Below the pieces are notes generated by a model, which did not search any database, was not told the origin of the DNA, and was given only the letters and a program-made list of their open reading frames with translations. A stretch of 58,085 nucleotides of DNA, taken from NCBI GenBank assembly GCA_934085875.1, contig CAKOHQ010000001.1, forward strand, positions 1 through 58,085, given 5' to 3'. The DNA is from an uncultured Bacilli bacterium. GTDB lineage: Bacteria; Bacillota_I; Bacilli_A; RF39; UBA660. The position numbers and the translations under genes are program-made. Within the stretch, counting starts at the first letter, position 1, and each line of letters starts with the position of its first letter. Shown here in pieces: positions 15,987 to 57,937 of this stretch.

Positions 15987-16119
15987 GTATGTTTAATTAA
16001 TTTATAATAAGTTACTTTATTCGACAAATCATTTAAATATTTTGGTGTAATATATATAACCAGAACATTTATTGTTTATGTCCTGCCTTTTGTATTTAAG
16101 TATGAAGGGAGTAATAGTT

Positions 16120-16209
16120 ATGAAGTTTTATTCATGTATTATGAAAATATTGGATAGAATAATTATTATATTTTTTATTAAAATCTTATATAGTTTTATA
16201 AAAGACTAA
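16120..16209 (+). CDS. 29-aa hydrophobic peptide (type I toxin candidate, family A copy 1)
   Basis: SD GAAGGGAG lies 8 nt upstream of the ATG. Product MKFYSCIMKILDRIIIIFFIKILYSFIKD. A codon-for-codon homologue occurs at 57724-57813. The ORF sits inside a transcript whose ends are complementary (16058-16090 versus 16275-16306). Confidence 0.5.
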   Translation: MKFYSCIMKILDRIIIIFFIKILYSFIKD

Positions 16210-16227: not shown

Positions 16228-16304
16228 AAACAAAAAAGACATAGTACTAAAAAGTACAAATGTCACACCACAAGGTAGGACATTTAATAATAAATGTTCT
16301 ACTT
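16228..16304 (-). ncRNA. About 75-nt cis-antisense sRNA (antitoxin candidate, family A copy 1)
   Basis: Minus-strand TTGACA (16339-16334) - 17 nt - TACAAT (16316-16311). 5' hairpin GUAGAACAUUU/AAAUGUCCUAC. Terminator hairpin at 16264-16238 plus a U6 tract. Confidence 0.6.
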
Positions 16305-26933: not shown

Positions 26934-27010
26934 GCGCTCATAGCTCAATTGGATAGAGCGTTAGACTACGGATCTAAAGGTTAGGGGTTCGACTCCCTTT
27001 GGGCGCACCA
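26934..27010 (+). tRNA. tRNA-Arg (anticodon ACG)
   Basis: Manual cloverleaf: acceptor GCGCTCA/TGGGCGC, anticodon loop CTACGGA, T-loop TTCGACT, encoded CCA. Confidence 0.9.
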
Positions 27011-27036
27011 TTTTTTGTTTTTTATTCATGAGAAAG

Positions 27037-27057
27037 AGTACAATTTGTACTTTTTTT
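27037..27057 (+). terminator. Terminator after tRNA-Arg
   Basis: AGTACA-ATT-TGTACT hairpin plus T7. Confidence 0.55.
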
Positions 27058-27506
27058 ACATATTTGTTTGTGTTTGTTACATAGTATATAATGTATTATA
27101 TTTAATTTTGTATTTTATAATTTATGCTTTGTATATTAAAAATACTTGTATTTTAAATATAATATGATATAATTTAATTGTGATAAGTTTACTTGTCAAA
27201 TTAAAAAGAGATATTTAATCCAGCAAAATTAGGTGTCTCCTTAGTATTTTGTTTTTTGTAAGTTAGCACCTACATATGATGAGTAGGTGTTATTTTTTAA
27301 TCCTTGAAGTTCATTAAACGTTCTAATACTATCAATATTAATATATTTTTTTACATATTTATTTACATTTGTTACATAATATATAATGTATTGTATTTAA
27401 TTTTGTATTTTAAATTTATGCTTTATATATTAAAAATACTTGTATTTTAAATACAATATGATATAATTTAGTTGTGATAAGTTTACTTGTCAAATTAAAA
27501 AGAGAT
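27051..27506 (+). repeat. Two direct copies of about 160 bp (27051-27212 and 27346-27506), period about 295 bp
   Basis: Near-identical strings TTTTTTTACATATTT...TACTTGTATTTTAAATA.AATATGATATAATTTA.TTGTGATAAGTTTACTTGTCAAATTAAAAAGAGATA. Confidence 0.9.
27180..27298 (+). ncRNA. sRNA, family B copy 1 (partner ORF truncated)
   Basis: TTGTAT (27146) - 16 nt - TGaTATAAT (27165-27173). Terminator CACCTAC-N8-GTAGGTG plus a U-run (27268-27298). Contains GGUGUCUCCUUAG (an anti-SD-like UCUCC). Confidence 0.55.
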
Positions 27507-27578
27507 ACAATTTTGGCTTAGATGTATCTCCACAATGTGGGTTGCACCTAATTATATAGGTGCTTTTATTTTTATTTT
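27474..27578 (+). ncRNA. sRNA, family B copy 2 (antitoxin candidate)
   Basis: TTGTAT (27440) - 16 nt - TGaTATAAT (27459-27467). Terminator GCACCTA-ATTATA-TAGGTGC plus a U-run, shared with the convergent ORF transcript. Confidence 0.55.
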
Positions 27579-27652
27579 AATATGATTGCAAGGACTACAA
27601 TGATGAAAGGAATTAATGAAAGTATTAATACAACTGCCATTAAGTATTCCAT
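27572..27652 (-). CDS. 26-aa hydrophobic peptide (Fst-like type I toxin candidate, family B)
   Basis: Product MEYLMAVVLILSLIPFIIVVLAIILK. Transcription unit TTGTAA-17-TATAAT (27782-27754). The 5' UTR segment ACCUCC can pair with the SD GAGGAGGU. The stop lies 8 nt from the bidirectional terminator. No SD sits directly before this ATG; the strong SD serves an overlapping frame starting at 27686. Confidence 0.45.
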   Translation of the reverse strand: MEYLMAVVLILSLIPFIIVVLAIILK

Positions 27653-27884
27653 TTTTTAATGTAGATAATAATTTATATGCTTTCATACCATCACCTCCTC
27701 ATACATATAAATATGTATTGTGGAGGTACACCTATAATTGCATCTCTGATATAATTATATAATATAAAAATCAACATTACAATAAACATCTATATAAAAT
27801 AATAGAAAATGTTTGTTAAAAATAAAATTGTTTTTTTAGTATAAAATTGATTTAATGATGAACACTATATAATGGTGATTTATA

Positions 27885-33129: not shown

Positions 33130-33254
33130 GTGATAGGAAGTTCTATCATATAAATATTTTTTGGACACAAAAAGAGTTGCTTAATATTCGTCGTTAAGTA
33201 CTTTCAGTCCAATTTGTTCTGTGGGTACCTAAATGAGTTTGGTACCTGTTTTTT
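33130..33254 (+). ncRNA. sRNA, family B copy 3 (antitoxin candidate)
   Basis: TTGATT (33098) - 16 nt - TGtTATAAT (33117-33125). The 5' end GUGAUAGG is as in the 27-kb copies. Terminator GGTACC-N11-GGTACC plus U6. A second promoter, TTGACT-17-TATAAT, lies at 33050-33078. Confidence 0.55.
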
Positions 33255-33318
33255 AATCCTTGTTGAAAAGTATTTTAAGTAGTATTAATATCACTACTAA
33301 GATTACTAAGTAATCCAT
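33253..33318 (-). CDS. 21-aa hydrophobic peptide (type I toxin candidate, family B)
   Basis: Product MDYLVILVVILILLKILFNKD. GGAAGGA lies 7 nt upstream of the ATG. Transcription unit TTGTAT-17-TATAAT (33429-33401). The stop overlaps the shared terminator. Confidence 0.45.
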   Translation of the reverse strand: MDYLVILVVILILLKILFNKD

Positions 33319-33449
33319 TTATTATTCCTTCCATAGGACCACCTCCTTCCACAAAAGTTGAGAGAGGTTGAGAGTACCTAACTTAAGCAACTCAATTGGT
33401 ATTATAATATATATTATATAATAATACAACGTTAAAATAGAGGTGTTTT

Positions 33450-57638: not shown

Positions 57639-57723
57639 AAATGCTTTATAGTAGTATATGTAACCAGAACATTTTATATTCTGTTAGTGTTTACCCAACT
57701 ATATATATAGAAGGGATGCATAC

Positions 57724-57813
57724 TTTAAATTTAAAAGTTTTATTATTAAAATACTTGATAGTATAATTTTATTATACATATTGAAAATAATTTTCTTTCT
57801 CCTACAACAATAG
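57724..57813 (+). pseudogene. Start-less homologue of the 29-aa family A peptide
   Basis: Ungapped 30-codon alignment with 16120-16209 ending at the same stop (FKFKSFIIKILDSIILLYILKIIFFLLQQ*). TTT replaces the ATG, and the nearest ATG (57716) is out of frame. Confidence 0.35.
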
Positions 57814-57859
57814 GGAGTTTTGGTTATAACAATTAGACACTAGTGTTTTATATTTGTGC

Positions 57860-57937
57860 AAAAAAAAGCACACGTATTAAAAATACGAGTGTCTACACAA
57901 CATGGGTAGACATTCTAGATATAAGAATGTTCTACTT
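57860..57937 (-). ncRNA. About 78-nt cis-antisense sRNA (family A copy 2)
   Basis: Minus-strand TTGACA (57972-57967) - 17 nt - TAAAAT (57949-57944). 5' hairpin GUAGAACAUUCU/AGAAUGUCUAC. Terminator CACUCGUAU-UUUUA-AUACGUGUG plus U8. Confidence 0.6.

Follow-up and report, generated by a model that had tools for sequence, protein, structure and literature searches.

In bsrG/SR4 of Bacillus subtilis, structure probing has shown that nucleotides 1-35 of the toxin mRNA form a helix, P1, with nucleotides 232-262, and that binding of the antitoxin RNA SR4 leaves nucleotides 1-33 single-stranded, lengthens the stem of the Shine-Dalgarno (SD) sequence from 4 to 8 bp, and lowers translation (PMC3834814, Jahn and Brantl 2013). 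The bsrE/SR5 pair has a similar fold with no SD change (PMC6562991), and in hok/Sok the 5' and 3' ends of the toxin mRNA also pair (PMC3834814). Type I toxin mRNAs have among their standard descriptors both long-distance interactions between the 5' and 3' ends and elements that act as an anti-SD (PMC8594479). Documentation by structure probing of a mechanism in which the mRNA 5' end is displaced was found only for bsrG/SR4.

The whole stretch of DNA analyzed here, referred to as the window, is 58,085 nucleotides long and is contig 1 of a 1.19 Mb genome, 92% complete, of an uncultured bacterium from the same class as B. subtilis, the Bacilli. At three sites in the window, a short peptide mRNA and a small RNA (sRNA) are predicted to converge: module B1 at 27.4-27.8 kb, a second family B module (B3) at 33.1-33.4 kb, and a family A module at 16.0-16.3 kb, the latter two having the same layout as B1 (Table 1). 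In B1, promoters and terminators were found on both strands by sequence prediction, which yields a convergent, 3'-overlapping layout, and the sRNA is antisense to the entire 3' UTR of the peptide mRNA. In bsrG/SR4, too, the genes are convergent, the antitoxin RNA is complementary to the 3' portion of its target mRNA, and a long 5'-3' helix has its 3' arm invaded and its 5' arm freed, as is predicted here. The first-pass annotation of this DNA had supposed that competition between an mRNA's own 5' element and an sRNA for a single site was an undescribed scheme; bsrG/SR4, however, shows the same competition experimentally (PMC3834814), and 5'-3' pairing is among the standard descriptors already mentioned (PMC8594479). 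Families A and B are therefore new examples of the known bsrG/SR4 design, with the toxicity of their peptides and its neutralization being putative.

Table 1. Features of the family A and family B modules. Positions refer to the window unless a contig is named, and transcript ends are predicted.
Feature	Position	Strand	Details
B1 peptide mRNA promoter	27782 to 27754	-	TTGTAA-17-TATAAT, top-scoring promoter-like site on this strand; predicted start A27747
B1 mRNA 5' element (P1 5' arm)	27717-27747	-	near-copy of sRNA segment; anti-SD CCUCC at 27722-27726; mRNA leader AGAGAUGCAAUUAUAGGUGUACCUCCACAAU...GAGGAGGUGAUGGUAUG
B1 main SD, GGAGG	27694-27698	-	from sequence
B1 ORF1	27552-27686	-	44 aa, not hydrophobic; served by the strong SD; overlapped by ORF2, one base further on
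B1 ORF2	27572-27652	-	MEYLMAVVLILSLIPFIIVVLAIILK, 26 aa; conserved hydrophobic peptide, putative toxin
B1 mRNA 3' element (P1 3' arm)	27496-27536	-	also local terminator hairpin GAGAUACA/UGUAUCUC, then U5; SD-like GGAGA inside; predicted mRNA 3' end at about 27496
sRNA B1 promoter	27440-27467	+	TTGTAT-16-TGaTATAAT; start near 27474
sRNA B1	27474-27578	+	5' leader hairpin; same-sense copy at 27501-27536; terminator at 27544-27563 plus U-run, the only terminator-like site in the region
Orphan sRNA B2	27180-27300	+	behind duplicated promoter; cognate peptide mRNA present only as 3' remnant, its last ~40 nt (about 27301-27340)
B3 mRNA 5' element (P1 5' arm)	33369-33394	-	from sequence, folding and alignment
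Same-sense copy inside sRNA B3	33173-33206	+	its complement is the P1 3' arm of the B3 mRNA
B3 ORF2	33253-33318	-	MDYLVILVVILILLKILFNKD, putative toxin; main SD at 33342-33346
Family A mRNA 5' element (P1 5' arm)	16062-16087	+	SD at 16104-16111; ORF at 16120-16209, 29 aa
Family A mRNA P1 3' arm	16274-16300	+	on the - strand, 5' end of the convergent sRNA (16300 to about 16225)
Second family A copy, subfamily A-ii	57666-57933	+	both P1 arms kept with compensatory changes; SD kept
Other family A copies	C12:12746-13073, C27:18042-18497, C25:374-801		genome G000

There is no detectable sequence relationship to bsrG/SR4 in either peptide or RNA, and families A and B, while they work like that system, are not filed as its homologues or members. 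At the Rfam gathering score, only two tRNAs match in the window, and a search over 27000-27850 at E-values of up to 10 returned chance-level matches only. Among nine peptides submitted to Pfam, none gave a match above threshold, and hence no homology to the BsrG/TxpA or BsrE/BsrH toxins and no Fst_toxin match was found; the only hits were weak ones to DUF7535, DUF4006 and Ibs_toxin (E = 0.26-2.1). The peptides described here, at 20-29 aa, are shorter than BsrG, which has a length of 38 aa. Moreover, bsrG possesses a separate terminator, SL4, after P1, whereas in the present modules P1 runs right up to the U-run, and its 3' arm doubles as the terminator hairpin. The present modules are further set apart by an anti-SD with an SD-like decoy inside P1 and, in family B, by an additional upstream, overlapping reading frame, ORF1.

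At each of the three sites, the peptide mRNA opens with 26-31 nt that nearly repeat, in the same sense, a segment of the sRNA converging on it, with z = 6-9 relative to shuffled sequences. The two copies in B1, AGAGATACAATTTTGGCTTAGATGTATCTCCACAAT on the + strand (27501-27536) and AGAGATGCAATTATAGGTGTACCTCCACAAT on the - strand (27747 to 27717), are identical at 27 of 31 positions with one 5-nt gap, in an alignment that carries no RNA-pairing bias; their local alignment score is 40, as compared with 15.5 +/- 2.8 for shuffles (z = 8.8). The ungapped half of this likeness, 27519-27536 against 27717-27734, is the top inverted repeat. According to the predicted starts, the copy begins at +1 of the mRNA and about 27 nt into the sRNA. 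In the 33 kb module, GAGTTGCTTAA occupies 33174-33184 and its reverse complement 33383-33393; the inverted match proposed by the first-pass annotation is thus real, although its second half had been placed one nucleotide off, at 33384-33394, and the likeness is longer than was claimed, with GAGUUGCUUAA-GUUAGGUACUCUCA lying opposite GAGUUGCUUAA-(8 nt)-GUUAAGUACUUUCA (z = 6.4). In family A, 16062-16087 on the + strand resembles 16300 to 16274 on the - strand (z = 7.2), and both strings that had been quoted for the similar 5' ends of mRNA and sRNA are exact. With every string in place and alignment z values of 6.4-8.8, the two RNAs do carry the same CUCC-containing element in the same sense, and not complementary elements, as had been proposed.

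This arrangement can be compared with the par locus of pAD1 (Fst RNA I/RNA II), likewise a Firmicutes system of small genes that converge, in which the peptide is small and hydrophobic and the SD lies in a stem. In par, however, direct DNA repeats at the two 5' ends give rise to complementary RNAs, while here inverted DNA repeats give rise to same-sense RNAs. The likeness is present in 26 of 26 curated family B modules from other genomes, where it amounts to 742 identical aligned positions between the same-sense 5' copies, and in 13 family A copies, and this recurrence excludes chance. Puzzling as it may seem, it has an ordinary cause in the mRNA's own 5'-3' pairing: if the two ends of the mRNA pair with each other, and the sRNA is antisense to the 3' one, then the sRNA necessarily resembles the mRNA 5' end.

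When the full-length mRNAs were folded with RNAfold, a long 5'-3' terminal helix, P1, closed the minimum-energy fold of all three mRNAs in the window; taken together with the comparative evidence below, this lends P1 strong support. For comparative analysis, BLAST, pattern search, and targeted fetches within the same genus and family yielded 26 family B modules, spread over about 20 genera of uncultured gut Bacilli, with membership defined by a peptide consisting of MEYL plus 10-12 hydrophobic residues; MEYL and the hydrophobic core are conserved in 25 modules. The broad pattern GAGGTG..ATG..ATGGANTAY was mostly non-specific, and the roughly 20 real modules among its approximately 150 matches were picked afterwards by their hydrophobic ORF2. 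The arms of P1 were delimited by hand, as automatic delimitation with RNAduplex ran into AT-rich promoters. Since hand curation is a possible source of bias, a pairing-blind alignment and an ungapped test of cognate against non-cognate ends were added. Two copies were left out of the statistics: a second tandem copy at locus L106 (G308:C8, 1500-2200), whose 3' region contains no partner arm, and the copy at L131 (G347:C2), which has a replaced 5' UTR. These two copies could be variants that have lost P1 naturally.

Across the 26 modules of family B, the 5'-3' duplex comprises 24-35 bp, at -25 to -50 kcal/mol, and follows a common plan: a variable, 5'-terminal P1a; P1b, GUUAGGUG; a short loop; and P1c, CCUC(A/G)GUCC or CCUCC, which doubles as the anti-SD. 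The 3' end holds the complements in reverse order, followed by a U-run. In 21 of these modules, the pairing of 5' with 3' ends averaged -36.8 kcal/mol for cognate, -21.7 kcal/mol for non-cognate and -11.2 kcal/mol for shuffled partners, and the cognate 3' end ranked first for 18 of the 21 5' ends. Over the terminal 11 ungapped positions of the same modules, canonical pairs make up 96.5% of cognate but only 50.5% of non-cognate combinations, with 3-8 pair types observed per position. Compensatory changes also separate the subfamilies of family A, as in AGAAC/GUUCU to AGAGC/GCUCU and in GUCCUGCC/GGUAGGAC to GUGCUUACCC/GGGUAGGCAU. The elements of the opposing transcript are largely retained as well, the antisense-strand terminator in 15 of 19 family B modules and its -10 box in 17 of 19. 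The 3' arm is able to fold a local hairpin, the terminator, of -5 to -17 kcal/mol, and because both arms can form such local hairpins, P1 may not form in every molecule. The idea that P1 itself acts as a long-range terminator was dropped, given that most 3' arms fold a local hairpin before the U-run.

The differences between the two same-sense copies are equally informative. In the pairing-blind alignment, transitions that leave a G.U pair on the mRNA strand outnumber other transitions by 41:19 in family B (p = 0.006) and by 31:7 in family A (p = 1e-4), although the sequences are related, so that these p-values overstate independence and are indicative only. Many of the exceptions fall on the leading C of CCUCC, where the mRNA has C and the sRNA has U. 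This C is a better match for the SD (GGAGG) than for the GGAGA of the 3' arm, and the mRNA copy therefore appears to be selected also as an anti-SD. Covariation and the G.U bias, both found in both families, support the first-pass proposal of a single 3' site for which the sRNA and the 5' element of the mRNA compete. In addition, the sRNA copy in every family B module exceeds the mRNA 5' copy by 5-9 loop nucleotides, which show full complementarity to the loop of the hairpin at the mRNA 3' end. Such nucleotides would offer the sRNA a loop-loop (kissing) entry, which the mRNA's own 5' end does not have.

These patterns also bear on whether the likeness could simply be a DNA-level inverted repeat, produced by gene conversion, by inverted duplication, or as the relic of mobile-element ends, with no function at the RNA level. 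That family A is multicopy and often found at contig ends, and that modules recombine at a tRNA-Arg locus, would both be in keeping with such an origin. Yet the two predicted transcription starts mark where the repeat begins, with the promoters lying outside it, its arms differ by a constant loop deletion, and the G.U-biased transitions are confined to the mRNA strand, where homogenization would give equal numbers. As the design, furthermore, persists in about 20 genera despite the turnover of its sequence, we regard a repeat devoid of RNA function as extremely improbable.

The consequences of P1 for the SD were assessed as opening costs, which are thermodynamic predictions that ignore kinetics, ribosomes and proteins. 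In family B, the mean cost of opening the SD is 4.1 kcal/mol in the full-length mRNA, 7.9 kcal/mol when the 3' UTR is blocked by bound sRNA, and 7.6 kcal/mol in a nascent transcript that has no 3' UTR yet; in 17 of 19 modules, blocking raises the cost above that of the free mRNA. For B1, the respective values are 2.4, 8.5 and 8.5 kcal/mol. Family A behaves in the same direction in 12 of 14 copies, the 16 kb copy giving 1.3, 7.4 and 7.4 kcal/mol. Three modules depart from the pattern, namely B2 of genome G007, G313 and the second tandem copy at L106, in which the SD effect is absent or reversed, or the partner arm is missing. The suggestion that CUCC/CCUC in the mRNA copy can close the SD in cis is thus upheld by prediction, with an opening cost that rises from about 4 to about 8 kcal/mol once the 5' element is free.

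The same calculations raise the question of whether the CUCC element of the sRNA might instead pair with the SD in trans and block the ribosome directly, as the first-pass annotation had also proposed, and as SprA1AS is said to do in acting on SprA1 in trans via a non-overlapping domain. As a naked duplex, the sRNA could pair with the region around the SD at -8 to -15 kcal/mol, and the orphan sRNA B2 retains its CUCC element. After the structures of the sRNA and UTR have been paid for, however, the sRNA gains a net -4.8 kcal/mol on average on the 5' UTR alone, as against -98 kcal/mol for the antisense duplex. Co-folding of sRNA with mRNA is therefore highly favorable at the 3' end and marginal at the 5' UTR, and the two modes of pairing are predicted to be mutually exclusive, since the mRNA 3' arm occupies the sRNA element in the full duplex and uses it up. 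The strongest covariation, moreover, falls in P1a, for which no complement lies close to the SD. A direct trans block is accordingly very unlikely, and the first-pass proposal is not sustained on this point.

From the in silico evidence of anatomy, P1, covariation and energy differences, we infer that the modules are probably convergent, 3'-overlapping type I toxin-antitoxin-like pairs, in which the sRNA would repress translation of a toxic peptide in vivo by displacing the mRNA 5' end from the 3' end. In this mechanism, the peptide mRNA would close upon itself by pairing its first 25-40 nt with its last 30-40 nt, thereby forming P1. During synthesis of the mRNA, or after the sRNA has formed a duplex with the 3' UTR, the 5' arm would have no long-range partner, and its anti-SD would close the SD and switch translation off. 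In the free, full-length mRNA, on the other hand, the SD-like GGAG(A)/GGACUGAG in the 3' arm would serve as a decoy that captures the anti-SD and makes the SD easier to open. The model hence predicts that P1 keeps the anti-SD off the SD, and that displacement by the sRNA returns it there. Two features would favor the sRNA in this competition: its duplex is fully Watson-Crick, where the mRNA copy pairs via several G.U wobbles, and it retains the 5-9 loop nucleotides that are absent from the mRNA copy. The sRNA duplex would probably also be a substrate for RNase III and leave the mRNA with an exposed 5' end.

That last possibility leads to a different reading of P1, namely that the helix is real but that its job is RNA stability, termination, or both. 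P1 would then keep 5'-3' exonuclease away from the 5' end and 3' exonucleases away from the 3' end, and the sRNA would only expose the ends and create an RNase III substrate. The helix extends from precisely the predicted +1 to the U-run, its 3' arm is also a terminator hairpin in most modules, and the start of ORF2 is equally accessible in all states, all of which would suit such a role. An upstream helix has reportedly been described in Fst RNA I, which a stabilizing P1 would resemble. In bsrE/SR5 and txpA/RatA, moreover, degradation alone was found, with no SD change (PMC6562991). Against this stand the location of the anti-SD inside or directly beside the 5' arm in both unrelated families, the doubling of the predicted SD-opening cost upon release of the arm, and the one conflicting position at which the mRNA copy is tuned to the SD (CCUCC) and not to the 3' arm (GGAGA). 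While it is unlikely that P1 acts through stability or termination in place of translation, the two roles are not mutually exclusive, and P1 may serve stability as much as translation.

How displacement of the 5' end would reach the putative toxin depends on the start region of family B, which is read in two frames. In B1 these are 27552-27686 and 27572-27652 on the - strand, in B3 the dual-frame region is 33253-33352 on the - strand, and the same organization occurs at loci L024, L071, L076, L077, L106-L109 and L132-L135. The automatic assignment of AUG1 was wrong for B1 and for G048. The strong SD, GGAGGUGGUCC, serves ORF1, while ORF2 starts 13-34 nt downstream in a frame one base further on, often with an AAGGA/GGAGG of its own. 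Although ORF1 has no conserved protein sequence, in about 12 of 19 modules its frame runs on for 46-59 codons before a stop, as compared with a median of 4 codons for the remaining third frame. Its stop codon lies at, or a few nucleotides after, the start of the 3' arm and is often the UGA of GGACUGAG. Judged by this organization, ORF1 looks like a regulatory frame of the mok type. The predicted accessibility of the ORF2 start region is essentially unchanged between states (5.2 versus 5.6 kcal/mol), so that control of the toxin would need coupling to ORF1.

Family B thus shares with hok/Sok an overlapping upstream frame on a strong SD. In hok, however, the fbi-tac fold-back shuts the ribosome-binding site and is relieved by 3' trimming, whereas here the fold-back is predicted to open the SD; and Sok binds the hok 5' leader at the mok ribosome-binding site, whereas here the sRNA is antisense to the 3' UTR only, its 5'-like segment being same-sense. 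In aapA1/IsoA1 of Helicobacter pylori, the long-distance interaction reportedly keeps the mRNA inactive and the antitoxin is directed at the 5' region, both unlike the situation here. What the two have in common are successive anti-SD structures in the course of transcription and a 5'-3' long-distance interaction when the mRNA is full-length (PMC6733600).

A stronger version of the displacement model can be formulated, in which P1 would be a translational activator in two unrelated peptide families of reduced-genome gut Bacilli. A 3'-terminal SD-mimic would titrate the anti-SD, the antitoxin would be purely a better-pairing mimic of the mRNA 5' end, and in family B a mok-like ORF1 would provide the readout, its ribosomes unwinding both the sRNA target and P1. 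We put this forward tentatively, and consider it doubtful in its entirety; if true, the polarity of the activator would be opposite to that of the hok fold-back.

The present modules extend the bsrG/SR4 mechanism from a single example to a comparative pattern, in which dozens of natural variants of the 5'-3' helix co-vary with the antitoxin in many genera, and a second, unrelated peptide family in the same genome has the same layout. This suggests that displacing the mRNA 5' end from the 3' end is a common route by which antitoxin RNAs that bind at the 3' end can act on a distant ribosome-binding site. The natural variants of P1 constitute a ready test set for 5'-end displacement, and two type I toxin-antitoxin-like families not filed before are added to a lineage with very small genomes.

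Family A is multicopy, with at least five copies in the 1.19 Mb genome and 16 BLAST matches, not all of them full copies, in a relative. Its copies are often situated at contig ends, many of them in genomes G004, G008 and G009, and the repeats probably break assemblies. Two copies, on contig C25 and at locus L066, bear an insertion of approximately 100 nt in the 3' UTR. In the copy at 57666-57933, the start-codon position reads ACTTTAAA, as compared with ACATGAAA in the paralogue on contig 27. The start codon thus seems to have been lost, and this copy may be a decaying toxin gene in which the RNA structure is retained.

Adjacent to B1, the sRNA promoter and leader occur as a tandem duplicate, with 95% identity between 27114-27213 and 27408-27507. 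The orphan sRNA B2 that lies behind the duplicated promoter shares its first ~35 nt with sRNA B1, which might enable it to pair with the B1 mRNA at the very 3' end. Genomes G007 and G009 carry an intact B2 module at this tRNA-Arg/spoIID locus, while G008 and G004 have B1 alone there.
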